Origin: an uncultured Bacteroidales bacterium
Lineage (GTDB): Bacteria; Bacteroidota; Bacteroidia; Bacteroidales; P3
NCBI GenBank assembly: GCA_944321735.1
Contig: CALUMK010000007.1
Span: forward strand, 17,864 to 81,863
Direction of reading: 5' to 3'
Length of the DNA stretch: 64,000 bases
Part shown: positions 6,485 through 26,166 of the stretch, one piece after another
Numbering within the stretch: the stretch's first letter is position 1
Layout: each line of letters opens with the position of its first letter
The notes under the pieces: generated by a model
The model's input: only the letters and a program-made list of their open reading frames with translations
Databases searched by the model: none
What the model was told of the DNA's origin: nothing
Translations under genes and position numbers: made by a program

Positions 6485-6561
6485 AAGACTGACGGAAGAC
6501 AGTCTTAATCTTAAAGTAGAATTATAGATTACGCTTGCAAGAACAAAGGAAAAGCAAAACC

Positions 6562-7884: not shown

Positions 7885-7964
7885 CACACCGTCGGGGGAT
7901 GATTTCTCAAACTCCTATTTGGGGACACCCTCGTAATTTATAGGAATTTTAAAACAGGAAAGGT

Positions 7965-9533: not shown

Positions 9534-9662
9534 TTGGATACTTGCCTTGCGATGATCGGCTTGCCTCGTGCAAGGCGCAACGCGGGTTGCGAGCTTAAGC
9601 GGACATGAATGGCAATAATTTATAGTAAAGGGATTGAAAAGATATTATAAATACAGGACAAA

Positions 9663-10547: not shown

Positions 10548-13311
10548 GGTGCGGCAGCGGCAGGCCGTTTTCCCGGCAGATTTTCTCCAATTGCTGCAAA
10601 CGCCAGGCTTGGTCGTAATTGAAGAGCGAGCCGTAAGGTTCGGCTAACTTTTTCACCAGGCCCGGTGTTTCCTTTTGCAAGTTGAAAAGCCCTTGGCAGG
10701 CCGATTCCAATTCCTTCCAGTCCCGGCCGCCCAATTTGAGCGGGATGAAACCGTCCACGTTATAGATGTGCGTCTCGATATTGTGAATCTCGTCGGCTAG
10801 GATTTTGGCCTTGGCCTTGGTGATTTGCTGTTCGCCCACTTCGCAGAGCACGTTCAGGTATTTCTCGTACAAGACGTACTCGTTCAGCATGAAAGCCACC
10901 TCTTCGGCATCGAATCCCTTCCAGAAATCTGCCGGCAGCGGCATTGCGAGGAAACGCCCCAACATGAACGAACCCGCGTTCAGCCCCGAACGCTGGTTTT
11001 TCCGGCAATAGGCATCGGCCATCTTGAAGAAAGAAACCTTGTGTTCCAAAGACAGAAGTTCATAGACCCGGTACTGGTCCTGGTGCGACCCCATATTGCT
11101 TTCCATCAGCTGGTTCACATAATCTTCGGCATGGCTTTCGAACCAATGGTTCACCAAGTCCCGGGCCGCTTCCGGATGCTCGTTGAGGTCGTTGCGGATG
11201 AGCCGCGTGAGGGTGTTGAGGTCCACGATATCCGGCACCTTGATGGAATTGATGATGTCCATGTACTTCTGGTAGGCGGTCTTGAGGTTGATGAAGACCC
11301 GCTCCTCCTTAGGGTTCATCTCTAACTGCACCCCGTGCAGGTAATCCCAGAATCGGGAAGGACGGAACTTGGCTTTGCCTTTGAAGATGGTGGCGTTCTT
11401 GCTGGAGAGCGTGACCCAGTCGTATTCCTCGATGCGCAGCCCGTCCCGGTTCACCAATGAGTTCCCCTCCATCCGGATTCCGTTTTCTTCCAGGCTCAGG
11501 AAGGCCGGAATCCCGTAACCACGGCAAGCCGTCACCACATGGATGGCCGCCGGGGTCATGCTCAGGATGGCATCCATCTCGCTGAGCACGATGGTGTCTT
11601 CCGGAATGAACTTTTCCTTGCAAAGGCAGATTTTTTCTTCGTTCTTCCGTTTGAGTTCGAGTGCTTTGGCGGTACTGAAACAAATCTTGGCCGAAACCGC
11701 CGAGCGGGGCAGCACGTTGACCCCTTTCCCGAAGAATTGCAGTTCCTCAAAGGACGATTGGTCAATGCTTTCCGAGAAAATCTGCCGACGGTGGTAGGGT
11801 CGTACCAATTCGCTGACCCTTTCTTTGGAAATCAGCCCTTGCTCGTACAAGGCAATCGAAGACAGCAGGGCGGCCCGGCCGGTCAGTTCCGATTCGTTGA
11901 TTTGCAAGACGGCAAAAAGGTCGGCTTTCCCGGGAATGCTTTCCGCCCCGAACTCCACGGTGACCGGCGAAGCCAGGCGCTTTTCTAATTTGGGCAGCAG
12001 GGGGTCGAAATGGTAGATGGCCGGAAAAGCCTCCTTGATTTGCGCCCGGTCGAAGTATTCGTAATCTTTCGAGGACAGGTTGCCCGTCATGATTTCTTCG
12101 CCGAAGATGTCCGGGTAGCTTTCTATCTGCACGCCCAAGCCGGTTCTGGAATGCCGGCTGTAGAGTACGCCCGGATACGCGAAGTCGCTCCCGATGGTCC
12201 ATACCATCTTCTGCAACAGCAGCGAAGGGTAGGCGATGCGGCCTTGCATGAAGGTGGCCAGTAGCGATTGGTTGTTGCTGTAGAAACGGGCGATATGCAG
12301 CAGGTATTGGTAAATCTGCTCGAAGGCGTCGTCCAAGACGGCTTTCCCGTTGGGATAGGACTCGATGTCCGCCTCCACTTGCCGCAGCAGGTCTTTGTGC
12401 TGGGCGATTTGCCTTTCCTCGATACCGCTTTCGTAAGGGTGCGCCTTTCCGGAAAGCATCTTGTAGAGGTTCATCAGGTTGTTCCAGTAGATTCGGGTGG
12501 CCATCTTTTCCGGGAACTGACGGAGCAGGCTTTGATAGACCTGTCGGGTGGTGCCGGCGTTCAGTATCGTAGGCATCAGGCCGGGGATGTACTGGGGCAT
12601 CGTGCTGCGTAAGGCAAGAATCAGCGGGAAGCGGCCGCCCCCGAGGCTGCATCCGGTCATGATTTCCAGATTGTGCAAGGCCTCCCGCAGGTAATGCCGC
12701 TGGAAACTCGTCTTGGCGGCATTTTCCTCGTCGGCCTGCAAGGAGCGTTTGAAGAAAGCTGAACTGAGGATGCTGAAATCCGGGACCGCGTATCCGGCTC
12801 GCATCAGGTCGGTCAGCATCACGCCCTTGTGGCTTATCTGGTCCACGGTATACGAATGGGGCGAGAGGGCCGAGGTCACATAGGGGTTGTCTTCCAAAGG
12901 ATGGCTGTCCACGTAGCGTTTGCAGGCATCGTAAAAGTCTTTGCGGATCCGGCCGAGTTCTTCCTTGGCATGGGAATCGCCTGTCTGCTCGGCTATCAAT
13001 AGCCGCAGAAAGGATTGCAAATGTTCCCGTTTGGTACGCAGCATCAGGAAGATGTCGTACCAGCGAGGAGCGATTTCCCGTTTCTGGCTTTCGCCCGGAA
13101 GGATATAAACCACCGTGCCGGGCTTGTTGCCTTCCGGCTCCCGGTCTTTCTCGAACTCCCGCCAGCCTTTTTCAACAAAGAGTTTGAGCATGAAATAGTT
13201 GGGGTAGCTTCCCCGGATGCGGAAGTCGATGGGGGCTTGGCTCGGGTCTTGCGGCAGGCAAGGTTCTTCTATGAAGTCGGGTCGGTTCATCGCGATGGAG
13301 TTTGGGTTCAA
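10534..13311 (-). CDS. Atypical PEP-utilizing (dikinase-like) protein with a PPDK_N-type ATP-grasp and a phosphohistidine swivel domain, but a non-canonical helical C-terminal domain
   Basis: KGVMLTDLMRAGYAVPDFSIL, LALRSTMPQYIPGLMPTILNAGTT and YPGVLYSRHSRTGLGVQIESYPDIFGEEIMTG resemble the PPDK/PpsA nucleotide-binding domain. SMTPAAIHVVTACRGYGIPAF aligns with the swivel motif GGMTSHAAVVARGMGKP, and the His is conserved. The last ~275 aa lack the GTNDL / CGE motifs of the PEP/pyruvate TIM barrel. The 3' end overlaps the convergent gene 9663..10547 by 14 nt. Confidence 0.6.
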   Translation of the reverse strand: MNPNSIAMNRPDFIEEPCLPQDPSQAPIDFRIRGSYPNYFMLKLFVEKGWREFEKDREPEGNKPGTVVYILPGESQKREIAPRWYDIFLMLRTKREHLQSFLRLLIAEQTGDSHAKEELGRIRKDFYDACKRYVDSHPLEDNPYVTSALSPHSYTVDQISHKGVMLTDLMRAGYAVPDFSILSSAFFKRSLQADEENAAKTSFQRHYLREALHNLEIMTGCSLGGGRFPLILALRSTMPQYIPGLMPTILNAGTTRQVYQSLLRQFPEKMATRIYWNNLMNLYKMLSGKAHPYESGIEERQIAQHKDLLRQVEADIESYPNGKAVLDDAFEQIYQYLLHIARFYSNNQSLLATFMQGRIAYPSLLLQKMVWTIGSDFAYPGVLYSRHSRTGLGVQIESYPDIFGEEIMTGNLSSKDYEYFDRAQIKEAFPAIYHFDPLLPKLEKRLASPVTVEFGAESIPGKADLFAVLQINESELTGRAALLSSIALYEQGLISKERVSELVRPYHRRQIFSESIDQSSFEELQFFGKGVNVLPRSAVSAKICFSTAKALELKRKNEEKICLCKEKFIPEDTIVLSEMDAILSMTPAAIHVVTACRGYGIPAFLSLEENGIRMEGNSLVNRDGLRIEEYDWVTLSSKNATIFKGKAKFRPSRFWDYLHGVQLEMNPKEERVFINLKTAYQKYMDIINSIKVPDIVDLNTLTRLIRNDLNEHPEAARDLVNHWFESHAEDYVNQLMESNMGSHQDQYRVYELLSLEHKVSFFKMADAYCRKNQRSGLNAGSFMLGRFLAMPLPADFWKGFDAEEVAFMLNEYVLYEKYLNVLCEVGEQQITKAKAKILADEIHNIETHIYNVDGFIPLKLGGRDWKELESACQGLFNLQKETPGLVKKLAEPYGSLFNYDQAWRLQQLEKICRENGLPLPHPNES

Positions 13312-13353
13312 TTTATCATGTTGTTTTTCTATTGGGCATTTTGCAAGCCGAAT

Positions 13354-13893
13354 TCATTTCAGATAGGCTTGGAATGCTTGCCAGAGCACGATGCCGGCCG
13401 TGACGGAAATGTTGAACGAATGCTTGGTGCCGAACTGCGGGATTTCCAAAGCCCCGTCGCAGGCATCCACCACTTCCTGCCGGATTCCTTCCACTTCGTT
13501 GCCGAACACGAAAGCGGTCTTTTCCCCGGCCTGGATGGCGAAATCCTGCAAGGGCGTGCTGTTTTCCACCTGTTCCACGGCATAGACCTTGTAGCCCTTG
13601 GCTTTGAGTTCGGCCACGGCCTGCAACGTATCCTCGTAGTGTTGCCAATCCACGCTCAAGGTCGCGCCCAAGGCGGCTTTTTCGATTTCCCGGTGCGGAG
13701 GCACGGCGGTGATGCCGCAAAGGCAGAGTTTTTCCACGCGGAAGGCATCGCAGGTCCGGAAGCAGGAACCTATGTTATGCATGCTCCGCACATTGTCCAG
13801 GATTACGCAGAGCGGGTATTTGTCGGCTTCCTTGAACTGGGCTGTGCTCATCCGTCCCAGTTCCTGCATGGTTTTGAGTCTATGTTGAGTCAT
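13354..13893 (-). CDS. SpoU/TrmH-family RNA 2'-O-methyltransferase
   Basis: Track ORF 13354..14037 runs into an intergenic repeat. The ATG at 13893 gives a 179-aa protein MTQHRLKTMQELG...PLCVILDNVRSMHNIGSCFRTCDAF...FVFGNEVEGI...EIPQFGTKHSFNISVTAGIVLW, which carries the SPOUT motifs. It lies 42 nt upstream of the dikinase-like gene on the same strand. Confidence 0.8.
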   Translation of the reverse strand: MTQHRLKTMQELGRMSTAQFKEADKYPLCVILDNVRSMHNIGSCFRTCDAFRVEKLCLCGITAVPPHREIEKAALGATLSVDWQHYEDTLQAVAELKAKGYKVYAVEQVENSTPLQDFAIQAGEKTAFVFGNEVEGIRQEVVDACDGALEIPQFGTKHSFNISVTAGIVLWQAFQAYLK

Positions 13894-14007
13894 CGTTGTT
13901 GTTTTTTTTTGTGGATTACAGGGGAATCGCCTCGAAAGTGGCAAGTTTTTTTGATGGGTTCGGAGTGTACGCCGCATTGTGGCGGCCTGTAAGGGATTCC
14001 CTCCCGG

Positions 14008-14140
14008 CAAAAATAGTGAAAGTCGAGCGCAGAGCAAACGAGCTTGCTCGAGTTGCTCTGCCGAGACGCATCCTGTTTTCGACGACAGTCAAAAATAGTG
14101 AAAGTCGAGCGCAGAGCAAACGAGCTTGCTCGAGTTTGCT
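14008..14140. repeat. Two tandem copies (period 82 bp) of an intergenic repeat unit carrying a hairpin and a CAAAAATA box; same family as 56891..57065
   Basis: CAAAAATAGTGAAAGTCGAGCGCAGAGCAAACGAGCTTGCTCGAGTT(T)GCT occurs at 14008-14057 and 14090-14140. The stem is CAGAGCAA/TTGCTCTG. CAAAAATA is the reverse complement of TATTTTTG, a TAnnTTTG box. Confidence 0.8.
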
Positions 14141-14394
14141 GAGGCGTAGGGGCTTCGATGAAATCAATCTTCGGTGCGAAGCACTCAAAAGTACGGAATT
14201 TATAGAACCCGTTTTGTGGCGAACCTGCCAAGCCTGACGACCGATTAAGGTTTACGGCGGGTTCTATGTACTAGGCCGAGGGGGTCCGTCGGGCGAGCGA
14301 AGTTTTGTCCCACGAAAAGGACGCATAGAGGACCATAAGACCGATTTTGCAGGGCTGGAGTGAAAAAACAAGGATAGTAGTTTGGAAAAAATAC

Positions 14395-14402
14395 TAACTT
14401 TG
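14395..14402 (+). promoter_or_regulatory. -7 promoter box TAACTTTG for array copy A
   Basis: Exact TAnnTTTG match, 98 nt upstream of ATG 14500. The same octamer sits at the equivalent position before copies B, C and D. Confidence 0.5.
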
Positions 14403-14499
14403 TCTGTTAGTGGGGAGTCCGCATCCGACAGATTCCGACAGAGGATGCGATTGCTCTCTGCAAGCTTAGCAAACCGCTGTTGCGTAAAAACATTACACT

Positions 14500-16041
14500 A
14501 TGCTGTACCCGATTGGAATCCAGAGCTTTGAAAGCATCCGCGAAGGCGGCTATGTCTATGTGGACAAAACCCATTTGATTCATCAGCTTGCCACTACCGG
14601 CAAATATTATTTCCTGAGCCGCCCACGCCGCTTCGGGAAGAGCCTCTTGGTTTCCACGATGGAGGCCTATTTCCAAGGGAAAAAGGATTTATTCAAAGGA
14701 TTGGCTATCGAGAAATTGGAAAAGGTCTGGGCAGAATACCCGGTGCTGCATTTGGATTTGAGCGGAAAAACCTACAACAAAGCCGAGGACTTGGAAATGC
14801 TTTTGGATATGCATCTATGCCGATGGGAAAAAGCTTTCGATATGCAAACTCGGTATTCTGAACCAGACATCCGTTTCCAAACCCTCATCGATACCGCCTA
14901 TGAAAAGACCGGAAAGCCTGTTGTCATCCTGATTGACGAGTACGACAAGCCGTTATTGGATTCGGCTGGCAACGAAGAACTTCGGGAAGCCTACCGCAGC
15001 CGCCTGCAAGGATTTTACAGCGTCATGAAGACCCGCGACGGCAAAATCCGCTTCGGATTTCTCACCGGCATCACCAAGCTTGGTAAGCTCAGCGTCTTCA
15101 GCGGCCTTAACAATCTCAACGACATCTCGATGGATTGGGAATTTTCCGGCATCTGCGGCATCTCGGAAAAGGAACTCCATACTTGCTTTGACCAGGAAGT
15201 GTCCGCAATGGCGCAGGCCAACCGATTGACGAAAGAGGAATGCTATGCCAAGCTGAAAGACTACTACGACGGTTACCATTTCTGCGATGGTGCCGAAGAC
15301 ATCTACAATCCGTTCAGTCTGCTCAGTGCCTTGCGAAAGAAGCGGTTCAGCGATTATTGGTACGAGACCGGTACGCCTACTTTCGTGGTCAAAGCCTTGC
15401 GGAGCGGCAAGTTCAATCTGGAAGACCTTACATTGGAAGGTGTCCCGGCTTCCGCCTTGGGCGGGGTCAACGCCGATGATTCCGACCCGATACCCATCCT
15501 TTACCAGAGCGGCTACCTGACTATCAGGAGCTACGATGAGAGGTGGGAGCGGTATGCGTTGAAATACCCCAACAAAGAAGTGGAAAGGGGGTTTGTGCAA
15601 GGCCTAGCCAACATTTACGTTCCTTCAGTGCGGTACAATAGCCCTTTCGACGTGCAGAAATTCGTGGAGGATTTCGAGAAGGGCGATACCGAAAGCCTGA
15701 TGAAACGTTTCGAGGCCTTCTTTGCCGATGCCGACTACGAAATCGTGGGCGATGCCGAACTCTATTTCCAGAATACCATGTACGTGATGTGTAAACTCAT
15801 GGGGCAATACACCCAAGTGGAACGCCACACCAGCAACGGCCGGATGGACATTCTGGTGCAGACCGACAAGTACATCTATATCATGGAACTGAAGATGGAT
15901 GCCAGCGCGGACGAGGCCTTGAAACAAATCGAGGACAAAGGCTATGCGAAGCCTTTCGCCGCCGATGCTCGCCGGATTTTCAAAATCGGGGTCGGCTTCT
16001 CCAGCGAGACGAGACGGATTAAGGAATGGAAAATGGCTTGA
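14500..16041 (+). CDS. AAA-ATPase-like + PD-(D/E)XK nuclease family protein, array copy A (513 aa)
   Basis: MLYPIGIQSFESIREGGYVYVDKT..., Walker A-like FLSRPRRFGKSLLVST, Walker B-like VVILIDEYDKPLLD, and C-terminal nuclease-like core ERHTSNGRMDILVQTDKYIYIMELKMD. Confidence 0.8.
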   Translation: MLYPIGIQSFESIREGGYVYVDKTHLIHQLATTGKYYFLSRPRRFGKSLLVSTMEAYFQGKKDLFKGLAIEKLEKVWAEYPVLHLDLSGKTYNKAEDLEMLLDMHLCRWEKAFDMQTRYSEPDIRFQTLIDTAYEKTGKPVVILIDEYDKPLLDSAGNEELREAYRSRLQGFYSVMKTRDGKIRFGFLTGITKLGKLSVFSGLNNLNDISMDWEFSGICGISEKELHTCFDQEVSAMAQANRLTKEECYAKLKDYYDGYHFCDGAEDIYNPFSLLSALRKKRFSDYWYETGTPTFVVKALRSGKFNLEDLTLEGVPASALGGVNADDSDPIPILYQSGYLTIRSYDERWERYALKYPNKEVERGFVQGLANIYVPSVRYNSPFDVQKFVEDFEKGDTESLMKRFEAFFADADYEIVGDAELYFQNTMYVMCKLMGQYTQVERHTSNGRMDILVQTDKYIYIMELKMDASADEALKQIEDKGYAKPFAADARRIFKIGVGFSSETRRIKEWKMA

Positions 16042-16142
16042 TGCAAGTTCCGCCGAGCTAGTGACCGGATCGACTTTTCCTTCCAGCAAACAGAATCTCA
16101 CAAGGAATCGGAACGAATCCGAAAGAGAAAACAAAAAGACAA

Positions 16143-16191
16143 AATGCCGCGCAGGACGAGGACAAAACCCCTCTTGCACGGCATTCTTTTT
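16143..16191 (+). terminator. Hairpin plus T-run between convergent genes (copy A and the LRR remnant)
   Basis: AATGCCG (16143-16149) pairs with CGGCATT (16179-16185) and is followed by CTTTTT. The loop is long (29 nt), so this is a weak call. Confidence 0.35.
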
Positions 16192-16220
16192 AGATGACTC
16201 TTACTCTCCCCTGCTCTCGG

Positions 16221-17036
16221 CTACATCACTAAGATTTTCCAGACCTGTTCGCCATGGCGGACAATGTATGTTCCGGCTTGGTGGACCGGAATCCTTGTGT
16301 CCTTTCCTTGGTAAACCAACGTGCCCACGGCGGTGAAGACGGATACTTCCCCGCTGATGCCTTCCGTGTAGAGGGTTCTGTCCTTGGCATAAACCCGGCC
16401 TTGGGGCTGCAAGTCCGATGTCTCGTTGCCCATCGAGGGATCGCGGTCGGCAAACAGGCTGAAAGTAACCGATTTCAGGCTTGCGTCCTCGGCGCTTCCG
16501 CTGTAGCCGGTGGCATACGCATAGGTGACTTCCTGCTGCGTGAAGGTCAGCTTGTTGCCCATCCTCGTGCAGCCCGTCCAATCCGATGCCTTGGCCATGT
16601 TAAAGCCCGGCAAAGAGGACACGTCGAAGGCGTTGCTTTCATCAAGTTCGATGTCCAGCCGGTTGCCGCTTGCATTCAGCGTTTGCAAAGCGGTGTTGGC
16701 GGAAAGGTCGAGGCTCGTCAGCGCGTTGTCGGAGCAGTCGAGGCTTTGCAAAGCGGTGAAGTATCCGATGCCCCGCAAGTCTTGGATGTCCTTGCCGCCG
16801 AGGAAGCGGGAGAAGCTGTTGGAGGTGGTGCGCCATATCTCCGCGCGGCGTTGCCTGCCTTCCAAGCGGGCTTCCTCCGCCAGGATTCCAAGCCAGCACA
16901 GCATCGTCTTGGGTTTCTCCCGGCTGTTCGTCGGCATCTTGCTTTGATTTCGCCCGCAGGCGGCGGTTCTTCCCTTGCCGGGGCTTGCAACCCTTGAAGC
17001 GGGAGCTTGCATTGCTTGTCCGTTTTGCATATTCAT
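16221..17036 (-). pseudogene. Probable 5'-truncated remnant of a BspA-like leucine-rich-repeat surface protein with a T9SS-type C-terminal domain
   Basis: LRR units (FTALQSLDCSDNALTSLDLSANTALQTLNASGNRL) and a C-terminal beta-sandwich-like tail (VSVFTAVGTLVYQGKDTRIPVHQAGTYIVRHGEQVWKILVM) are present. There is no signal peptide, and the N-terminal ~90 aa are arginine-rich and unlike a real protein. The ORF start abuts the point where homology to the array spacer resumes (17037 onward). Confidence 0.5.
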
Positions 17037-17126
17037 GATGCTGCGTTGTTGTTTTGGTATTGGTTGAAAAGAGAAATCGCCATGTCCGAGTCCTGCAAAG
17101 ATGAAGGCGGCATTCCGGAAAAATAC

Positions 17127-17134
17127 TAACTTTG
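17127..17134 (+). promoter_or_regulatory. -7 promoter box TAACTTTG for array copy B
   Basis: Exact TAnnTTTG match, 102 nt upstream of ATG 17236, within the conserved context CATTCCGGAAAAATACTAACTTTGTCTGTTAGCGGGAGG. Confidence 0.5.
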
Positions 17135-17235
17135 TCTGTTAGCGGGAGGCCTGCGTCCGGCAATCTCCCAACGGACGATGCGGTTGCCCTCAACAAGTTT
17201 TAGCAGACTGCTGTTTGACAAAAAAACATCACGCT

Positions 17236-18777
17236 ATGCTCTACCCGATTGGAATCCAGAATTTTGAAAGTATCCGTCAAGGCGGTTACGTTTATGTGGA
17301 CAAGACCCATTTGATTCATCAGCTTGCCACTACCGGCAAATATTATTTCCTGAGCCGCCCACGCCGCTTCGGGAAGAGCCTCTTGGTTTCCACGATGGAG
17401 GACTATTTCCAAGGGAAAAAGGAACTGTTCAAAGGCTTGGCCATCGAGAAATTGGAAAAGGACTGGACAGAATACCCGGTGCTGCATCTGGATTTGAGCG
17501 GCGTGACCTATACCGATGAAAACGTCTTGAACGAGAAGATGGAAAACACCTTGAGCCAATGGGAGCAGACATACGGGATAGCCAATACTTTCACGGTGGA
17601 TGGGATTCGTTTTGAAAACATTATCAAGACCGCTTATTCTCAAACCGGTAAACCCGTTGTAATCCTAATCGACGAGTACGACAAGCCTTTATTGGACACG
17701 GCTGGCAACGAGCCTCTGCGGGAAGCCATCCGCAGCCGCCTGCAAGGCTTCTACAGCGTTATGAAATCGCAGGACGGCAAAATCCGCTTCGGCTTCCTGA
17801 CCGGCATAACCAAGCTTGGAAAGCTCAGCATCTTCAGCGGACTCAACAATCTTAACGACATCTCGATGGATTACCGTTACGCGGACATCTGCGGAATCTC
17901 GGAGAAAGACCTGCATGCTTATTTCGATGAAAGCGTACAGGAAATGGCTGAGGCAAACAAGATGTCAAAAGAAGAATGTTACGCTCGATTGAAAGAGTAT
18001 TACGACGGATACCATTTCTGCGAGGACTCCGAAGACATTTACAACCCGTTCAGCCTGCTCAGCGCCCTCAATGGCAAGAGATTTCGTGACTATTGGTACG
18101 AAACCGGCACCCCCACCTTCGTGGTCAAAGCTTTACAAAGAGGACAATTCAACTTGGAGGGCCTGACCTTGGAAGGCGTTCCGGCATTCGTCTTAGGCGG
18201 CGTAAACGCCGATGATTCCGACCCGGTGCCTGTCCTCTACCAGAGCGGCTACCTGACCATCCAAAGCTATGATAATCAAACCCAGGAATACACCTTGAAG
18301 TATCCCAACCAGGAGGTGGAACGCGGCTTCATGCAAGGCTTGGCCAATATTTTCGTGCCTTCCGCGCGGTACAACAGCCCGTTCGCGGTCAGGAAATTCG
18401 CGGAGGACTTCAAAAAAGGCGATACCGAAAGCCTGATGAAACGCTTCGAGGCCTTCTTTGCCGATGCCGACTATGAAATTGTAGGTGACGCTGAACTGTA
18501 TTTCCAAAACACGATGTACGTGATGTGCAAGCTGATGGGACAGTACGTGCAGGTGGAACGCCATACAAGTGATGGCCGCATGGACATCGTGGTGCAGACC
18601 GACAAGTACGTCTATATCATGGAACTGAAAATGGATGCCAGCGCGGACGAGGCCTTGCAGCAAATCGAGGACAAGGGCTATGCCAAGCCCTTCGCCGCCG
18701 ACCCGCGAAAGCTATTCAGGATTGGCGTTGGCTTCTCCAGCGAGACGAGACGGATCAAGGAATGGAAAATGGCATAG
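17236..18777 (+). CDS. AAA-ATPase-like + PD-(D/E)XK nuclease family protein, array copy B (513 aa)
   Basis: Track ORF 17215..18777. By homology with copy A the start is ATG 17236 (MLYPIGIQNF). Motifs are the same as in copy A. Confidence 0.8.
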   Translation: MLYPIGIQNFESIRQGGYVYVDKTHLIHQLATTGKYYFLSRPRRFGKSLLVSTMEDYFQGKKELFKGLAIEKLEKDWTEYPVLHLDLSGVTYTDENVLNEKMENTLSQWEQTYGIANTFTVDGIRFENIIKTAYSQTGKPVVILIDEYDKPLLDTAGNEPLREAIRSRLQGFYSVMKSQDGKIRFGFLTGITKLGKLSIFSGLNNLNDISMDYRYADICGISEKDLHAYFDESVQEMAEANKMSKEECYARLKEYYDGYHFCEDSEDIYNPFSLLSALNGKRFRDYWYETGTPTFVVKALQRGQFNLEGLTLEGVPAFVLGGVNADDSDPVPVLYQSGYLTIQSYDNQTQEYTLKYPNQEVERGFMQGLANIFVPSARYNSPFAVRKFAEDFKKGDTESLMKRFEAFFADADYEIVGDAELYFQNTMYVMCKLMGQYVQVERHTSDGRMDIVVQTDKYVYIMELKMDASADEALQQIEDKGYAKPFAADPRKLFRIGVGFSSETRRIKEWKMA

Positions 18778-18859
18778 TCATTATTGTTTCTGTATCGGTA
18801 GAAAAGAGTTCGGCATGTCCGGGTCCATTCAAAATCAAGTCGGCATTCCGGAAAAATGC

Positions 18860-18867
18860 TAACTTTG
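18860..18867 (+). promoter_or_regulatory. -7 promoter box TAACTTTG for array copy C
   Basis: Exact TAnnTTTG match, 101 nt upstream of ATG 18968. Confidence 0.5.
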
Positions 18868-18967
18868 TCTGTTAGCGGGAGGCCTGCGTCCGGCAATCTC
18901 CCAACGGACGATGCGGTTGCCCTCAGCAAGCTCTAGCAGACCGCTGTTTGACAAAAAACATCATGCC

Positions 18968-20509
18968 ATGCTGTACCCGATTGGAATCCAGAACTTTGAA
19001 AGCATCCGCCAAGGCGGTTACGTTTATGTGGACAAGACCAATTTGATTCATCAGCTTGCCACTACCGGCAAATATTATTTCCTGAGCCGCCCTCGCCGTT
19101 TCGGGAAGAGCCTCTTGGTTTCCACGATGGAGGCCTACTTCCAAGGGAAAAAGGCACTGTTCAAAGGCTTGGCCATCGAGAAATTGGAAAAGGACTGGAC
19201 GGCTTACCCGGTCTTGCATCTGGATTTAGGGGGCAAAACCTACCGGAATGAAGAGGATCTGGAAATCACACTGAACCAGCATTTGCTCCAATGGGAACAA
19301 GACTTCGATATCAAAGCCCTATATACGGAACCCGATGCCCGCTTCAAAGACATCATCGACACCGTTTGCAAAAAGATCGGCCAGCAGGTAGTCATCCTGA
19401 TTGACGAATACGACAAGCCTATTATGGATGCCTTGGAGAACCGAAGCCTCCGCGATGCCTTCCGCAGCCGCTTGTCCGGTTTCTACAGCGTGATGAAATC
19501 CAAGGACGGGAACATCAAGTTCGGCTTCCTGACCGGCGTGACCAAGCTCGGCAAACTCAGCATTTTCAGTGGCCTCAACAACCTCAAGGACATCTCGATG
19601 GATTACCGCTACGCAGATATCTGCGGCATCTCGGAAACCGACCTTCATGCCTATTTCACAGAAAGCGTGCGCGAATTGGCAGAAGCCAGCCGCCTTAGCG
19701 AAGAAGCCTGCTATGCCAAGCTGAAAGATTATTACGACGGATACCATTTCTGCGAGGGATCTGCCGATATCTACAATCCTTTCAGCCTGCTCAGCACACT
19801 CGACAGCCACCGCTTCAACGATTACTGGTATGAGACCGGCACGCCCACCTTCGTGGCAAAGGCTTTGGCCAAAGGGAAGTACAACTTGGAAAACCTGACC
19901 CTCGACAAAGTGCCGTCCACGGTCTTGAGCGGCATCAACATTGAGGACATCGACCCTGTCACGCTGCTTTACCAAAGCGGCTATCTGACCATCCAGTCTT
20001 ACGAGGATCGTATCCGGATGTACGTCCTCAAATACCCCAACCAGGAGGTGGAGCGTGGCTTCATGGACTGCCTGTCGAAGGTCTATATGCCTACGCTCAA
20101 CTACACCAGCCCGTTTGCTGTTTACAAATTCGTGGAGGATTTCGAGAAAGGCGATGCCGAAAGCCTGATGAAACGTTTCGAGGCCTTCTTTGCCGATGCC
20201 GACTATGAAATTGTAGGTAATGCCGAACTCTACTTCCAAAACACGATGTACGTGATGTGCAAGCTGATGGGGCAATATACCCAAGTGGAACGCCACACCA
20301 GCAACGGCCGGATGGACATTCTGGTGCAGACCGACAAGTACATCTATATCATGGAACTGAAGATGGATGCCAGCGCGGACGAGGCCTTGAAACAAATCGA
20401 GGACAAAGGCTATGCGAAGCCTTTCGCCGCCGACCCGCGTAAACTCTTCAAGATAGGTGTCGGCTTCTCCAGCGAGACGAGACGGATCAAGGAATGGAAG
20501 ATGGCATAG
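18968..20509 (+). CDS. AAA-ATPase-like + PD-(D/E)XK nuclease family protein, array copy C (513 aa)
   Basis: Track ORF 18911..20509; the homologous start is ATG 18968. The 3' tract 20279-20433 is identical to copy A 15811-15965. Confidence 0.8.
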   Translation: MLYPIGIQNFESIRQGGYVYVDKTNLIHQLATTGKYYFLSRPRRFGKSLLVSTMEAYFQGKKALFKGLAIEKLEKDWTAYPVLHLDLGGKTYRNEEDLEITLNQHLLQWEQDFDIKALYTEPDARFKDIIDTVCKKIGQQVVILIDEYDKPIMDALENRSLRDAFRSRLSGFYSVMKSKDGNIKFGFLTGVTKLGKLSIFSGLNNLKDISMDYRYADICGISETDLHAYFTESVRELAEASRLSEEACYAKLKDYYDGYHFCEGSADIYNPFSLLSTLDSHRFNDYWYETGTPTFVAKALAKGKYNLENLTLDKVPSTVLSGINIEDIDPVTLLYQSGYLTIQSYEDRIRMYVLKYPNQEVERGFMDCLSKVYMPTLNYTSPFAVYKFVEDFEKGDAESLMKRFEAFFADADYEIVGNAELYFQNTMYVMCKLMGQYTQVERHTSNGRMDILVQTDKYIYIMELKMDASADEALKQIEDKGYAKPFAADPRKLFKIGVGFSSETRRIKEWKMA

Positions 20510-20591
20510 TCATTATTGTTTCTGTATCGGTAGAAAAGAGTTCGGCATGTCCGGATCCATTCAAAATCAAGTCGGCATTCCGGGAAAATGC

Positions 20592-20599
20592 TAACTTTG
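20592..20599 (+). promoter_or_regulatory. -7 promoter box TAACTTTG for array copy D
   Basis: Exact TAnnTTTG match, 101 nt upstream of ATG 20700. Confidence 0.5.
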
Positions 20600-20699
20600 C
20601 CTGTTAGCGGGAGGCCTGCGTCCGGCAATCTCCCAACGGACGATGCGGTTGCCCTCAGCAAGCTCTAGCAGACCGCTGTTTGACAAAAAACATCATGCC

Positions 20700-22241
20700 A
20701 TGCTGTACCCGATTGGAATCCAGAACTTTGAAAGCATCCGCCAAGGCGGTTACGTTTATGTGGACAAGACCCATTTGATTCATCAGCTTGCCACTACCGG
20801 CAAATATTATTTCCTGAGCCGCCCACGCCGCTTCGGGAAGAGCCTCTTGGTTTCCACGATGGAGGACTATTTCCAAGGGAAAAAGGAACTGTTCAAAGGC
20901 TTGGCCATCGAGAAATTGGAAAAAGACTGGACAGAATACCCGGTGCTGCATCTGGATCTGAGCGGAAAAACCTACAATAAGGCCGAAGATTTGGACATGA
21001 TTTTGGATATGCACTTATGCCAATGGGAAAAAACTATCGGTATGCAAGCCCGATATTCCGAACCTGATCTCCGTTTTCAGTCCATCATCGACACCGCCTA
21101 CGAATTGACAGGAAAATGGGTGGTAATTTTGATTGACGAATACGACAAGCCGCTTCTGGACTCGGCGGGCAACGAATCGCTCCGGGAGGCGTTCCGCAGC
21201 CGCCTGCAAGGCTTCTACAGCGTGATGAAGAGCCAGGACGGCAAACTCCGCTTCGGCTTCCTCACCGGGGTCACCAAACTTGGAAAACTCAGCATCTTCA
21301 GCGGCCTCAACAACGTGGAAGACATTTCACTGAGCCGCACCTACGCCGACCTCTGCGGCATCTCGGAAGCCGACCTCCACCATTATTTCACCCAAAGCGT
21401 GCAGGAACTGGCTCAAGCCAACGAATTGACCCAAGAGGAATGCTTCGCCCAGCTCAAGGATTACTACGACGGTTACCATTTCGCCCCGGACACGCCGGAC
21501 ATCTACAACCCTTTCAGCCTGTTCCGCTGCCTCAAGAGCCGGGAATTCGGCGATTACTGGTACGAGACCGGTACGCCCACCTTCGTTATCAAGGCCCTGC
21601 AACGCGGCCAGTACGACTTGGCAGATTTGAGTCTGACCCCGGTTCCCGCCTCTTGCTTAAATGGGGTCAACGCCGATGATTCCGACCCGGTCCCCGTCCT
21701 CTACCAGAGCGGCTACCTGACCATCAAAGCCTATGACAAGCAGACGAAGGAATACACCTTGGGCTATCCTAACCAGGAGGTGGAACGCGGCTTCATGCAA
21801 GGCTTGGCCAATATTTTCGTGCCTTCCGCGCGGTACAACAGCCCGTTCGCGGTCAGGAAATTCGCGGAGGACTTCAAAAAAGGCGATACCGAAAGCCTGA
21901 TGAAACGCTTCGAGGCCTTCTTTGCCGATGCCGACTATGAAATTGTAGGTGACGCTGAACTGTATTTCCAAAACACGATGTACGTGATGTGCAAATTGAT
22001 GGGGCAATACACGCAGGTGGAACGCCATACCAGCAACGGCCGGATGGACATTGTAGTCCAGACTGACAAATACATCTATATCCTGGAACTGAAGATGGAT
22101 GCCAGCGCGGACGAAGCCTTGCAGCAAATCGAGGACAAGGGCTATGCCAAGCCCTTTGCCGCCGATCCTCGCAAGCTCTTCAAAATCGGCATCGGCTTCG
22201 CCAGCCAGACGCGGCGAATCGAGGAGTGGAAAATGGCTTGA
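20700..22241 (+). CDS. AAA-ATPase-like + PD-(D/E)XK nuclease family protein, array copy D (513 aa)
   Basis: Track ORF 20643..22241; the homologous start is ATG 20700. Tracts 20742-20923 and 21773-21994 are identical to copy B 17278-17459 and 18309-18530. Residues ~89-140 resemble copy A instead. Confidence 0.8.
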   Translation: MLYPIGIQNFESIRQGGYVYVDKTHLIHQLATTGKYYFLSRPRRFGKSLLVSTMEDYFQGKKELFKGLAIEKLEKDWTEYPVLHLDLSGKTYNKAEDLDMILDMHLCQWEKTIGMQARYSEPDLRFQSIIDTAYELTGKWVVILIDEYDKPLLDSAGNESLREAFRSRLQGFYSVMKSQDGKLRFGFLTGVTKLGKLSIFSGLNNVEDISLSRTYADLCGISEADLHHYFTQSVQELAQANELTQEECFAQLKDYYDGYHFAPDTPDIYNPFSLFRCLKSREFGDYWYETGTPTFVIKALQRGQYDLADLSLTPVPASCLNGVNADDSDPVPVLYQSGYLTIKAYDKQTKEYTLGYPNQEVERGFMQGLANIFVPSARYNSPFAVRKFAEDFKKGDTESLMKRFEAFFADADYEIVGDAELYFQNTMYVMCKLMGQYTQVERHTSNGRMDIVVQTDKYIYILELKMDASADEALQQIEDKGYAKPFAADPRKLFKIGIGFASQTRRIEEWKMA

Positions 22242-22247
22242 TACCTA

Positions 22248-22280
22248 TTCGTTACGAAATAAAATCGTAACAAAGTTTTG
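22248..22280 (+). terminator. Candidate intrinsic terminator closing the array
   Basis: TTCGTTACGA (22248-22257) pairs with TCGTAACAAA (22265-22274) at 9 of 10 positions around a 7-nt loop, followed by GTTTTG. Confidence 0.45.
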
Positions 22281-22427
22281 CTTACTTTGCAAAATTGGCC
22301 GTGTATGCAGGTCTTATTGGCGAAAATCGGCGGAAAGGCCTGTCCTCACGGTGAATCTTGCCGATGTCAAGAGGCCGGATTTTGTATAGGTATCGCCCTA
22401 TAAAGCCCTATAAACAAGTATAGTATC

Positions 22428-24782
22428 ATGGCAAAAAAGAAGGATTTCCCTGTTCTGGAACGGGACTTGAGCTGGATGTATTTCAATCGGCGTATCTTGC
22501 AGGAAGCTTGCAAGGACAATGTGCCCTTGCTGGAACGGCTTTCGTTCCTCGGCATCTATTCCAATAACTTGGACGAGTTCTTCCGGGTCCGGGTCGCTAC
22601 CCAGAGCCGGATTGCCGAATACCAGGATCGTTTCGACAACAAGGAAAGCCAGGCCGCGCTGAAGCTGATCAAGAAGATAAACAAGCTCAACAGCCTTTAT
22701 TCCGAAGACTATTCCGCTGCGGTGGAGCATGTTACCGAGCTGTTGCGCAACGAGAATATCTATCTGATTTCTGAAAAGGAGGTCAGCGCGGATCAGATGG
22801 CCTTTGTCCAGGACTTCTATCGTCAAAAGCTTAACGGCTTCGTGGTCCCGGTCTGGTTCAGCGCCACCAAGGAATTAGGCAACGAGACCGATGAAAGCAT
22901 CTACTTGGCCGTCAAGATGTGGGGCGGGAATCAGAAACCCCAGGAGGACTATGCGTTTCTCGAAGTGCCGGTTAAGATTTGCGGCCGTTTCGTGCGCCTG
23001 CCCGACAAGGAAGGCAAGAGCTATTTGATGTATGTGGACGATGTGCTGCGTTGCTGCCTGCCTTTGGTTTTTGCCGGTTTGGGTTACGAGGAGTTCGAAG
23101 CCTATGCCTTCAAGTTTACCCGCGATGCCGAGATGGAGATAGACAACGACCCTCGAAACGGGGTATTGCAGAAGATTTCCAAGGGCTTGAAGAGCCGGAA
23201 GCGAGGGGAGCCTTTGCGGGTGGTCTATGATGCCACGATGCCCAAGGATCTCCAGAAGCGGGTGTTCCGTCTGATGGACTTGGACAAGCTGGATACCGTT
23301 CTGGGCAGCGGCCGGTACCAGAACCATAAGGACTTGATGTCTTTTCCCGATTGCGGTCGGAAAAACCTCAAGTATCCGGCCTGGCCGTCCTTGCTCAAGC
23401 CTGAATTGGACGGTTCGGACTGTATTTTGGACAAGATTCTGGAGAAAGACCGGTTCCTGCATGTGCCTTACCATAGTTTCGATTCCTTTATCCGTGTCTT
23501 GCAGGAAGCCGCTATCAGCCGCCGGGTCAAGAGCATCAAGATTTCCCTGTACCGTTTGGCGCGGGAGTCGAAAGTGGTGAAAGCCTTGATTGGCGCGGCC
23601 CGTAACGGTAAGAAAGTGACGGTGGTCATTGAATTGCTGGCACGTTTCGACGAGGTTTCCAACATCGAGTGGTCCAAGAAGATGCAGGAAGCCGGTATCA
23701 AGGTGGTGTTCGGGGTCGAGGGCTTGAAAGTCCATTCCAAGATTCTGCATATCGGCATGAAGACCGGACCCGACATTGCTTGCATCAGTACCGGGAACTT
23801 CCACGAGGGCAATGCCCGTACCTATACCGATTGCATTTTGATGACGGCAGCCGAGCGCATTACCAAGGACGTGTCCGCGGTTTTCGATTTCATCGAGCGG
23901 CCTTACCGGCAGGCGCGTTTCCGGGAGCTTCTGGTGTCGCCCAACCGTATGCGCAACAAATTCGAGCAGCTGATTCAGAACGAGATTCTGAACAAAAAAG
24001 CGGGGAAGCCGGCGTATATCAAGGTGAAAGTGAACCATATCACCGACTTGAAGATGGTGTCGAAGCTTTACGAGGCGGCTCAATGCGGGGTCGAGGTGGA
24101 TTTGCTGGTCCGGGGAAATTGTTCCTTGATGCCGGAGAAGGCTGGTTTGTCCGACCACATGAAGGTTTGCGGTATCATCGACCGCTATTTGGAACACGCG
24201 CGCATCTTCATCTTTGCCAATGGAGGGAACGAGTTGGTTTACATGGGTTCTGCGGACTGGATGACCCGGAACCTCGACAATCGGATTGAAGTCGTCACCC
24301 CGGTTTACGATGCCCGGATTAAGGAAGAATTGAGGCTGATTGTGGATTACGGCTTGGCGGATACCTCCCAGGGCCGTTTGGTGGATGGCAGTGGGGAGAA
24401 CCTGTCGTGGAAAGGTTTGGTTGAAACCGACTTGGAACCCAGGCTTTTCCGCTCCCAGGAGGCTTTGTATGCGCATTACGCGGCGGAAATGGAAGGCAGT
24501 GAAGCTCCTGGAGCTTTATCCGAGGATGCCGGAACCGGCACGGCTTCCGAGCTACCGGTCTCCGGAACACGAGGACGCAAGGCAACGGCTTCCAAGTCCC
24601 GGCAGTCCGGAAGTTCGGCCTTGGTTTCCACGGAAAAGGCTCCCAAGCAGGGAACCCGGACGCGGACGGGAAAGAGTACAGACAAGGCCGTTCAGGCGCA
24701 GCCGGAACAAGAGGCAAAACCGGATAAAGGGCTGGTATCGGGAAAGGTGGCGCGTTCCCGGCCCCGGAACACAAAGTCCTGA
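22428..24782 (+). CDS. ppk1: Polyphosphate kinase 1 with a ~100-aa basic low-complexity C-terminal extension
   Basis: The N-terminus ERDLSWMYFNRRILQEACKDNVPLLERLSFLGIYSNNLDEFFRVRVA is the conserved PPK1 start, and the two PLD-like C-terminal domains are present. The tail from ~aa 680 is rich in S/T/G/K/R/A (GTRGRKATASKSRQSGSS...KVARSRPRNTKS). Confidence 0.9.
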   Translation: MAKKKDFPVLERDLSWMYFNRRILQEACKDNVPLLERLSFLGIYSNNLDEFFRVRVATQSRIAEYQDRFDNKESQAALKLIKKINKLNSLYSEDYSAAVEHVTELLRNENIYLISEKEVSADQMAFVQDFYRQKLNGFVVPVWFSATKELGNETDESIYLAVKMWGGNQKPQEDYAFLEVPVKICGRFVRLPDKEGKSYLMYVDDVLRCCLPLVFAGLGYEEFEAYAFKFTRDAEMEIDNDPRNGVLQKISKGLKSRKRGEPLRVVYDATMPKDLQKRVFRLMDLDKLDTVLGSGRYQNHKDLMSFPDCGRKNLKYPAWPSLLKPELDGSDCILDKILEKDRFLHVPYHSFDSFIRVLQEAAISRRVKSIKISLYRLARESKVVKALIGAARNGKKVTVVIELLARFDEVSNIEWSKKMQEAGIKVVFGVEGLKVHSKILHIGMKTGPDIACISTGNFHEGNARTYTDCILMTAAERITKDVSAVFDFIERPYRQARFRELLVSPNRMRNKFEQLIQNEILNKKAGKPAYIKVKVNHITDLKMVSKLYEAAQCGVEVDLLVRGNCSLMPEKAGLSDHMKVCGIIDRYLEHARIFIFANGGNELVYMGSADWMTRNLDNRIEVVTPVYDARIKEELRLIVDYGLADTSQGRLVDGSGENLSWKGLVETDLEPRLFRSQEALYAHYAAEMEGSEAPGALSEDAGTGTASELPVSGTRGRKATASKSRQSGSSALVSTEKAPKQGTRTRTGKSTDKAVQAQPEQEAKPDKGLVSGKVARSRPRNTKS

Positions 24783-26013: not shown

Positions 26014-26109
26014 ATCGCAATTTTCGGTAAAATTTTGTGGTTGTAATCGCAATTTTCGGTAAAATTTCGTGGTTGTAATCGCAATTTTCGGTAAAATTTC
26101 GTGGTTGAA
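26014..26109. repeat. Three contiguous 32-bp direct repeats (iteron-like) immediately upstream of the promoter of the DUF4143 ATPase gene
   Basis: ATCGCAATTTTCGGTAAAATTT(T/C)GTGGTTG(T/A)A starts at 26014, 26046 and 26078. TTTCG half-sites are spaced 11 and 21 bp alternately. Confidence 0.85.
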
Positions 26110-26122
26110 CCTATTCTTTTCT

Positions 26123-26130
26123 TATCTTTG
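26123..26130 (+). promoter_or_regulatory. -7 promoter box TATCTTTG for the DUF4143 ATPase gene
   Basis: Exact TAnnTTTG match, 37 nt upstream of ATG 26167 and 14 nt downstream of the 32-bp repeats. Confidence 0.5.
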
Positions 26131-26166
26131 CAAGCCAATAGGAGCCGCTTTATAAAATTCTGTGTC

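Follow-up and report, generated by a model that had tools for sequence, protein, structure and literature searches.

Recombination and a short hypervariable cassette in a tandem array of four DUF1703-family genes from an uncultured Bacteroidales bacterium

How can four neighbouring genes of exactly the same length be identical in some stretches and hardly alike in others, and what would an organism do with such a set? The question is raised by a tandem array within 64,000 nucleotides (nt) of DNA from an uncultured Bacteroidales bacterium (contig CALUMK010000007.1, positions 17,864 to 81,863), a stretch that we call the window. It was suggested in an earlier note, made from the sequence alone, that recombination homogenises the ends of these genes while their centre diversifies, and that their products form a diversified repertoire with a possible part in defence. 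The answer reached here is a different one in part. The copies do exchange segments, but it is the promoter, the leader and the 5' end that are homogenised, and the variable part is a cassette of about 40 residues inside the ATPase domain. That the array encodes recombining DUF1703 nucleases whose specificity is set by this cassette, most plausibly against foreign nucleic acid, is a reading to which we give a probability of about 0.5. The four array copies are referred to as A to D, and loci in other public assemblies by an L with a number.

14500-16041, forward strand: copy A, matching PF09820 (E 1.5e-70) and PF08011 (E 4.1e-22).
17236-18777, forward strand: copy B, missing as a separate unit in strain L006.
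18968-20509, forward strand: copy C, the most divergent of the four, with nt 1312-1466 identical to A.
20700-22241, forward strand: copy D, with a B-type 5' end, B-type nt 1074-1295 and an A-like variable cassette.

All four are intact open reading frames on the same strand, each of 513 codons plus a stop. Start-to-start distances of 2736, 1732 and 1732 bp give B, C and D an exact 1732-bp period. Gene lengths, period and upstream boxes had been described before, and their coordinates and spacings were reproduced. In some public assemblies (L001/L085) B, C and D are called as 493-residue products from an internal start; the 513-codon start is nevertheless predicted to be the correct one, because conservation begins at residue 1 and the Pfam match at residue 4. 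Among the contigs examined, the exact copy A protein is present on 23 public ones. The exact 513-residue D protein is not on record, because some assemblies call the 493-residue product, and a look-up with that shorter form leads to the same locus only.

Over their whole length the copies are 77-81% identical in nucleotides and 75-82% in protein, and this identity is strongly non-uniform along the gene. From gene nt 1 to about 200 all pairs are 86-100% identical. At nt 271-360 the pair A/D has 80-82% identity and the remaining pairs 47-70%. Farther downstream, B and D are 84-100% identical at nt 990-1250, reaching 100% around nt 1080-1250, and A and C are 91-100% identical at nt 1260-1400 and 98-100% around nt 1300-1440. 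Three exact tracts listed in the earlier note were verified base for base: 222 nt shared by B and D (18309-18530 and 21773-21994), 182 nt shared by the same pair (17278-17459 and 20742-20923), and 155 nt shared by A and C (15811-15965 and 20279-20433). The 103 informative sites are divided among all three groupings (24 for AB|CD, 46 for AC|BD and 33 for AD|BC) and are spatially clustered. On these sites, a test of the pairwise homoplasy index (PHI) type gave z = -7.5, a value that did not occur in any of 5000 permutations. In a GENECONV-type test, the runs of polymorphic sites in concordance were 61 for B/D and 26 for A/C, and each was reached in 0 of 5000 permutations. That the mosaic stems from recombination between the copies and not from chance, as had been supposed of the patchwork from the start, is statistically supported.

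A mosaic could also be produced by a short-read metagenome assembly in which paralogous reads are misjoined at shared tracts. The exact tracts, at 155-222 nt, do exceed the usual k-mers, and many of the related proteins come from metagenome contigs. However, the same four-copy arrangement is found in two further public metagenome assemblies, L001 (14 differences over 17 kb) and L002 (1 difference over 11.7 kb). These are 99.9-99.99% identical to the window, share its tracts, and come from other samples and apparently other assemblers. Provided that the window does not itself stem from one of these two assemblies, a chimera is unlikely. In addition, the copies are all intact and in exact register, and species-level bins of other studies show the same identity profile between paired copies. 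Taken together, an assembly origin of the mosaic is very improbable.

Synonymous divergence (dS) and the ratio of nonsynonymous to synonymous divergence (omega) separate what is homogenised from what is conserved. In codons 1-75, dS is 0.09-0.31 in all six pairs and omega 0.00-0.19, the values of a homogenised block. In codons 76-400, dS is saturated (about 1-2 or not computable) and omega is 0.07-0.32, with the exceptions of B/D at codons 331-400, where dS is 0.16, and of several pairs at codons 141-200, where it is near 1 (0.64 in one). In codons 401-513, dS is 0.5-1.2 and omega 0.03-0.06. For a family-wide comparison 28 ungapped copies from six genomes were used; in these the proportion of synonymous differences (pS) is 0.45-0.5 at the 5' end, within and between genomes, and 0.6-0.7 in the centre. 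It follows from the array dS of 0.09-0.31, set against this family-wide 5' pS, that the promoter, the leader and the first ~75 codons are homogenised locally and recently, in this array only. The non-coding spacers, which are almost identical between array copies, agree with local homogenisation of the 5' end. The C-terminal nuclease domain is kept mainly by purifying selection, together with a few recent conversion patches, and the centre indicates old divergence under constraint. Thus, the earlier claim of homogenised termini stands for the 5' end, promoter and leader but not for the C-terminus, where an omega of 0.03-0.06 reflects purifying selection. The companion claim of a diversifying centre is not borne out, as central dS is saturated, omega is 0.1-0.3 and positive selection is not seen.

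These figures also bear on the simplest alternative, in which A to D are ordinary old tandem paralogs whose ends have been conserved by purifying selection alone, without gene conversion. The C-terminal dS and omega would suit such a history, and the amino-acid variability profile is identical family-wide. It is contradicted by a 5' dS that lies 3-10 times below that of the centre and below that of dispersed family members, by the near-identity of non-coding spacers, and by exact tracts of 155-222 nt that include all synonymous sites. A single history is rejected by the permutation tests, and 11 of the 14 window-L001 differences over 17 kb are packed into one 85-nt tract. We consider this explanation largely refuted. 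The locus combines mosaic tracts with locally depressed synonymous divergence, as found in concerted evolution by gene conversion.

The upstream parts of the four units are as follows.

14387-14499, forward strand: predicted promoter and leader of A, with the box TAACTTTG at 14395-14402; homology to the B, C and D leaders begins here.
17046-17235, forward strand: spacer, predicted promoter and leader of B, with TAACTTTG at 17127-17134; holds most of the 85-nt tract 17193-17277.
18778-18967, forward strand: spacer, predicted promoter and leader of C, with TAACTTTG at 18860-18867; nearly identical to the spacer preceding D.
20510-20699, forward strand: spacer, predicted promoter and leader of D, with TAACTTTG at 20592-20599.

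The box lies 98-102 nt upstream of each ATG in A to D, and the window holds six matches to it in total against 1.8 expected. The Bacteroidota -7 promoter element has the consensus TAnnTTTG. The box fits this consensus, and promoters are predicted on that ground. In a simple scan for sigma-70 promoters and terminators, sites were no commoner than in shuffled sequence. The leaders (14403-14499, 17135-17235, 18868-18967 and 20600-20699; ~100 nt each) are conserved in A to D and can be folded into hairpins. They are not common to dispersed family members. Covariation among the leaders amounted to one compensatory pair, which is no real support in four sequences of which three are nearly identical, and an Rfam scan of 13000-23000 at E <= 1 gave chance-level matches only. 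Farther upstream of A, at 14008-14171, lies an 82-bp tandem duplication, made up by two perfect 47-nt repeats (14008-14054 and 14090-14136) that have the palindrome GAGCAAACGAGCTTGCTC inside them. Strains L004 and L005 align as if the duplication were single copy.

Comparison of strains reveals the exchange at work. The 11 clustered differences from L001 fall in 17193-17277, that is, in the leader and the first 42 nt of B, where L001 has C/D-type sequence. At four differences inside the B coding sequence the L001 base is the one common to A, C and D, and in the leader alignment it likewise agrees with the other copies at most of the remaining differing positions. The tract looks like a micro-conversion in L001 relative to the window. 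Strain L006 has one 1732-bp unit fewer: the stretch before B together with the B 5' end, 97.3% identical to window 16785-17300, passes directly into the body of C, in a segment 97.9% identical to window 18781-22233. Such a loss is what unequal crossover within the homogenised block would be expected to yield. Of the 65 positions at which the A alleles of the window and L008 differ, 64 lie beyond nt 900, and the ratio of nonsynonymous to synonymous differences per site (pN/pS) is 0.06. Array members were considered as donors of the clustered allele differences (A versus L008, C versus L006) and rejected: their identity is lower than that between the alleles, so that donors have to be sought outside this set, in other arrays for instance. 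One such array is L086, a single metagenome scaffold in which three adjacent copies lie at 6553-11542 between a MatE gene and a nucleotidyl-transferase gene; its third copy shares with D an exact tract of 632 nt (nt 481-1112). Segment exchange among the paralogs is ongoing, and both copy number and module content, which the earlier note had singled out for comparison across strains, prove to vary (unit loss, micro-conversion, cassette types). In the related bin L010, an array of the L086 type has two copies ~6.5 kb apart, making it another structurally variable locus.

Within the gene, the variable cassette occupies codons 88-126.

14761-14877, forward strand: cassette of A, class SGKTYN...
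17497-17613, forward strand: cassette of B, class SGVTYT...
19229-19345, forward strand: cassette of C, placed by the entropy and identity profile.
20961-21077, forward strand: cassette of D, A-like type.

Variability, measured as entropy, is concentrated in residues 93-125, with a mean of 1.29 bits against 0.26-0.64 elsewhere, and in 90-nt windows spanning gene nt 271-405 the B cassette is 47-52% identical in nucleotides to those of A, C and D. Among 101 distinct 513-residue relatives, residues 88-126 occur as 15 types, which by inspection form two deep classes, SGKxYN... and SGVTYT.... In nearly half of the pairs of these relatives the cassette is <40% identical, whereas residues 201-400 never fall <60%. 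Cassette identity of <=50% together with backbone identity of >=95% was found in 59 protein pairs. One example is D and the relative P0105, which are 100% identical over residues 176-375 and 33% identical in the cassette, that of P0105 being of the other class. The same profile recurs in other Bacteroidales genomes, where neighbouring pairs are 94-100% identical at the 5' end, dip to 44-58% near nt 250-350 and are 88-99% identical at the 3' end, and also in the second array, L086. The truly hypervariable part is therefore this ~40-residue two-helix cassette inside the ATPase domain; whole cassettes move from one backbone to another, and neighbouring copies keep different ones although the flanks are homogenised. 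It had been proposed that a central region of ~300 residues could act as recognition module, and this is not where the variability lies. The related proposal of shuffled modules survives in the A-like cassette of D on B-type flanks and in the A/C tract at the 3' end, and needs correction as to the size of the variable module. Cassette divergence possibly reflects selection for diversity, or conversion tracts that fail to cross divergent sequence.

Residues L98, L102, L106 and W109 are conserved within the cassette at a spacing of 3-4, as on the buried face of a putative amphipathic helix. In the structural model the cassette runs through an amphipathic helix and a loop into the start of a second helix, and it is placed after strand beta2 (82-86) and before the strand of Walker B (141-146). 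Cassette-based phase or antigenic variation, with silent copies and an expression site or as a shufflon, was considered and rejected: none of the four copies is truncated or lacks a promoter box, and the recombinase beside the array, a remnant in the window, has its inverted repeats around a separate segment in L006.

Judged by their domains, the array genes are plain members of the DUF1703 family. The four copies and the following more distant gene, already recognised in the earlier note as a divergent fifth copy, all match the full profiles of PF09820 (AAA-ATPase_like, E~1e-70, 218-239 bits against a cut-off of 26.1) and PF08011 (PDDEXK_9, E~1e-22, 77-81 bits against a gathering cut-off of 25.5), exactly the two families that had been foreseen.

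3983-5569, forward strand: fifth, distant DUF1703 copy, 43% identical to A, with the same two Pfam domains.

The Walker A-like RPRRFGKS, the Walker B-like ILIDEYDKP and the nuclease motifs RMDI and MELK pointed out earlier are present in A to D. Across 82 relatives, R41, P42, R43, R44, F45, G46, K47 and S48 as well as D146, E147 and Y148 are invariant, as are nuclease residues E420, D450, K465 and Q476, and E463 is conserved at >=90%. The PD-(D/E)XK motif set is complete (first-helix acid, D, ExK and second-helix Q). Because the catalytic residues of ATPase and nuclease are invariant or nearly so, all copies look functional. The protein has four parts, namely an AAA+ ATPase, a lid, a helical/beta-hairpin middle and a C-terminal PD-(D/E)XK nuclease. 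An AlphaFold2 model (predicted local distance difference test, pLDDT, 74.9; predicted template-modelling score, pTM, 0.71) has archaeal Orc1/Cdc6 (2qby_A, E 1.4e-5) and Apaf-1 (E 1.5e-4) as best fold matches of its N-terminal part, and its C-terminal domain matches the PD-(D/E)XK nuclease of CinB (7esz_C) with a probability of 1.0. The ATPase part is thus predicted to resemble Orc1/Cdc6 or the signal transduction ATPases with numerous domains (STAND), with an unusual Walker A (RPRRFGKS) and Walker B (DEYD).

The family is very large, with 19,450 clusters at 50% identity (E <= 1e-3) among 1.84 billion representatives. The nearest genome is a chicken-gut bin of Candidatus Pullibacteroides excrementavium, in which copy A has 98% protein identity and the same flanks. 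This bin and three related ones each hold several dispersed DUF1703 copies (nine contigs or more for JADIMZ01, and at least 4-7 loci for each of the three related bins). Copies 41-53% identical to A (L047, L059, L064, L068, L075 and L077) are binned outside Bacteroidales, with a Methanomethylophilaceae archaeon, Treponema, Gracilibacteraceae, Faecalibacillus, Flexilinea and Coriobacteriales. Either the family has spread widely between gut organisms by horizontal transfer, or the bins are contaminated.

The following course accounts for the array. Since the central synonymous sites are saturated, the paralogs are old, and they lie in exact register. By homologous recombination they exchange segments among themselves and with family members elsewhere; promoter, leader and 5' block are kept near-identical, and the same block is the site of unequal crossover that adds or removes 1732-bp units. 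As to function, the copies would be ATP-dependent nucleases that act singly, the two-helix cassette would set with its exposed face what the protein recognises, and the array would be a set of enzymes of differing specificities, most plausibly directed at foreign nucleic acid. In AAA+ proteins of the initiator clade (Orc1/Cdc6, DnaA), the beta2-beta3 connector carries a helical DNA-contacting insert. The two helices of the array cassette sit in the same connector of the model, in the place of that insert, a likeness of topology. The most economical model is that the copies are probably stand-alone ATP-dependent nucleases with a recognition surface that varies between paralogs. A conflict role against foreign nucleic acid is plausible from the architecture, the strain variability, and the nearby PDC-S01 gene and DpdF/GajB-like helicase described below.

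Several results weigh against this reading. PADLOC-DB v2 gave no defence model for any of the five copies at E <= 0.01; with the limit raised to 10, borderline matches of the nuclease core to PDC-S26, LmuA and Cas4 appeared (E 0.011-0.027). NCBIfam and PHROGs gave no family either. Nearest neighbours at 75 related loci (128 genes, 153 Pfam families) are mostly housekeeping genes; among the 128 are PDC-M42C three times, PDC-S01 twice, Hhe once and integrases twice, as raw counts. The defence idea of the earlier note hence receives no direct support, and none comes from the distribution of the family on phages and plasmids, where it is all but absent and rare, respectively (figures below). Searches of PDB sequences with the single protein and with an 82-sequence profile gave nothing significant, and in the literature there are computational descriptions only, with no experimentally characterised DUF1703 member and no solved structure, in line with the earlier note, which knew of no experimental work either. 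No sign of positive selection was seen: the cassette, too, has an omega of 0.1-0.3, in a test that saturation and recombination make less telling. The divergence of the cassette might reflect strong mismatch that blocks conversion, without selection, and its recognition face is inferred from topology and the initiator motif. The flanks of L086 are 97% identical to L010 and so resemble a different species bin, and the 632-nt tract shared with D may be an exchange between species and not within one genome. Finally, metagenome assembly may itself have created some of the chimeric proteins.

The mostly housekeeping neighbours and the lack of defence-model matches would instead suit a cellular role apart from conflict, such as DNA repair, replication-associated processing or regulation, with sub-functionalised paralogs in what is simply a duplication hotspot. 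So would purifying selection throughout, the Orc1/Cdc6-like fold and an unremarkable guanine-plus-cytosine (GC) content; the array, at 0.51-0.52, equals its flanks, and a compositional island was rejected. What speaks against a cellular role is that copy number and content differ between close strains, that housekeeping enzymes do not usually carry a hypervariable surface cassette that is swapped, and that copy number is patchy across species, with <4 copies in most and >=10 in 9.8% (Pfam survey, PMC6387759), which would not be expected of a core function. We hold a cellular role to be unlikely, though well worth keeping in mind.

The dispersed copies invite another explanation, in which the genes are selfish, a nuclease-ATPase that spreads or maintains itself in a homing- or addiction-like manner. 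Genomes do hold many copies, in contexts that are not conserved (see also PMC3424549). Fragments of the family were proposed to be like miniature inverted-repeat transposable elements in Cardinium (PMC12039267), and CifB toxins were reported to have an AAA-ATPase-like motif together with PD-(D/E)XK nucleases (PMC12445526). However, around 28 dispersed copies flank homology is lost within ~20-30 nt of the start and stop codons, and shared ends or inverted repeats were not found. Recurrent neighbours (Peptidase_M3, shikimate kinase) suggest that some copies may have the same position in several species, orthologues are under strong purifying selection (pN/pS 0.06), and a partner antitoxin-like gene is not present. 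The family is rare on plasmids (matches in 72 of 72,556 records) and essentially absent from bona fide phages, the sole matches being 35 unannotated virome contigs. We therefore find selfish elements an improbable explanation.

For the Cardinium cCpun paralogs it was proposed, from predicted signal peptides, that they are secreted nuclease effectors (PMC6387759), here to be aimed at host or competitor cells. The organism of the window does have a type IX secretion system, with a nearby cargo gene at 7-1743 carrying a Por_Secre_tail domain. In the array proteins, however, the N-terminus (MLYPIGIQSFESIREGGYVYVDKT...) lies within the ATPase domain, PF09820 starting at residue 4, and shows no hydrophobic signal segment by eye. 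There is no type IX C-terminal sorting domain either, since the C-terminus is the nuclease core. Secretion can hardly be entertained for these proteins.

How far is the array, as a recombining set of DUF1703 nucleases, like systems already known? In type I HsdS domain swapping and in plant clusters of nucleotide-binding leucine-rich repeat (NLR) genes, conserved flanks recombine and a short divergent specificity module is exchanged or kept distinct; copy number changes by unequal crossover. A bolder proposal, which we regard as rather doubtful, is that Bacteroidales DUF1703 arrays would be a recombination-driven innate-immune repertoire of single-protein, ATP-dependent sensor-nucleases, with specificity set by the cassette at the site of DNA contact in replication initiators, and with the homogenised promoter and 5' block as the recombination handle by which cassettes are shuffled and copy number is altered. 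In function, such a repertoire would be comparable to NLR clusters or HsdS recognition-domain swapping. Unlike those systems, the array has no homology to them, no methyltransferase partner, and no invertase or inverted repeats acting on it.

Within its own family the array stands close to what is known. DUF1703 was defined computationally by Knizewski et al. (2007; PMC1913061), including RPRRFGKS, DEYD and the C-terminal PD-(D/E)XK core. The array genes share its domains, its RPRRFGKS and DEYD, its PD-(D/E)XK motifs I-IV and its four-part architecture of ~510-540 residues; the family is abundant in Bacteroidota, and the array genes show no structural difference from it, although membership in a family without a tested member says little about mechanism. 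In Cardinium hertigii cCpun, the many DUF1703 paralogs of one genome have a reticulate history, with recombination detected by RDP4 and PHI (Siozios et al., 2019; PMC6387759). Those paralogs, at 39% mean amino-acid identity, were reported without homogenisation and predicted to be secreted, and a short swapped cassette was not described in that paper. In contrast, the array copies are 75-82% identical, lie in exact-register tandem with a homogenised promoter and 5' block, and are apparently cytoplasmic.

Other resemblances are of fold or architecture. Orc1/Cdc6 (2qby) and STAND (Apaf-1) give the best fold matches of the ATPase and lid part, yet sequence similarity is not detectable and template-modelling scores (TM-scores) are low (0.2-0.27). 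The array proteins also differ from Orc1/Cdc6 in ending in a nuclease, not a simple winged helix, and, being multi-copy and strain-variable, are not replication initiators. RdrA of the RADAR system is a defence ATPase of similar fold class; its domains include PF09820 according to a review (PMC10952713), and its ATPase domain was compared with Cdc6 (PMC9994260). Membership in RADAR was rejected for the array, where no RdrA model matches even at an E limit of 10 and the neighbours are a leucine-rich repeat (LRR) remnant, polyphosphate kinase and SpoU methylase; no RdrB deaminase adjoins the array genes, and RdrA has no fused nuclease. PDC-S01, with AAA_14 and DUF4143, resembles them as a stand-alone ATPase with a C-terminal domain, which in both cases is listed among PD-(D/E)XK families (Steczkiewicz et al., 2012; PMC3424549). 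The two are nonetheless separate Pfam families without cross-hits, and PDC-S01 is itself no more than a candidate defence gene. CinB shares the fold of the array nuclease domain (7esz_C), but CifB has two nuclease domains and a CifA partner, is much longer and lies on mobile elements.

The earlier note knew of no prior description, but the family was published in 2007 (PMC1913061) and its expansion and paralog recombination in 2019 (PMC6387759), and the array is a clear further example. Beyond this, the present analysis tells apart the stretches of the gene shaped by conversion from those kept by purifying selection, documents micro-conversion and the gain or loss of whole units by direct comparison of strains, traces segment exchange with another array, and identifies a short block-swapped hypervariable cassette in the ATPase domain that recurs across Bacteroidales. 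DUF1703 is very large and abundant in gut Bacteroidales, and the array and its strain variants amount to a natural experiment on a small scale. From them one can read off which stretches recombination homogenises, at what point it halts and which surface element stays different and is swapped, and residues 88-126 emerge as a specific, testable determinant for characterising a large orphan family. Should the proteins be defence nucleases, immunity in a dominant gut phylum would have in such arrays a common layer that has gone unrecognised; otherwise, the locus remains a clean case of segmental concerted evolution in a bacterium.

The surroundings of the array vary as well. Upstream lie a SpoU methylase gene and a sigma/anti-sigma pair, downstream polyphosphate kinase, Ppx and SecA genes. 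Two neighbouring features deserve mention.

16221-17036, reverse strand: deletion remnant between A and B, a 271-residue in-frame fusion reading frame.
26101-27294 (gene callers start at 26167): ATPase with AAA_14 and DUF4143 by Pfam, PADLOC candidate PDC-S01 (E 4.9e-162).

The second, with a GC of 0.48, is slightly below its surroundings; it had been described before as an ATPase with a DUF4143 tail, and Pfam bears this out. In L004, L005, L007 and L008, a 1646-residue double helicase that matches DpdF, PsyrT and GajB models lies just upstream of the sigma-factor gene, at the position that the fifth DUF1703 copy has in the window, and this position may be a strain-variable slot.

The N-terminal part of the remnant corresponds to residues 1-84 of a tyrosine recombinase (98.8% identical to L006), and the C-terminal part to the last 193 residues of a 1293-residue LRR protein (91% identical to L006). 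Both genes are intact in L006, relative to which the window has a 5.3-kb deletion with a junction at 16785-16797 (~13 nt overlap). Between the recombinase gene and a 226-residue gene plus the 1293-residue LRR gene, L006 has perfect 22-nt inverted repeats (7090-7277) that stand 144 nt apart and enclose a promoter-type box, TACCTTTG (7236-7243). The segment looks like an invertible promoter of the Bacteroidales type, oriented away from the LRR operon. The recombinase was considered as shuffler of the array and rejected: the inverted repeats bracket this separate 144-bp promoter-like segment, and the window keeps 84 residues of the enzyme.

In other strains a transposase gene, or the recombinase and LRR gene, is inserted beside A, which is a further hint of conflict. 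In L003 (11796-13793), a gene with a DDE-transposase domain directly follows A in place of the LRR remnant, and the contig ends after 666 residues of it. At the other end of the array, similarity of L006 to the window stops 8 nt before the stop codon of D, so that the downstream junction is also variable or carries an insertion; there (11954-12102) D is followed by a 1172-residue SNF2-family helicase (DUF8276, DUF3670, SNF2) instead of polyphosphate kinase.

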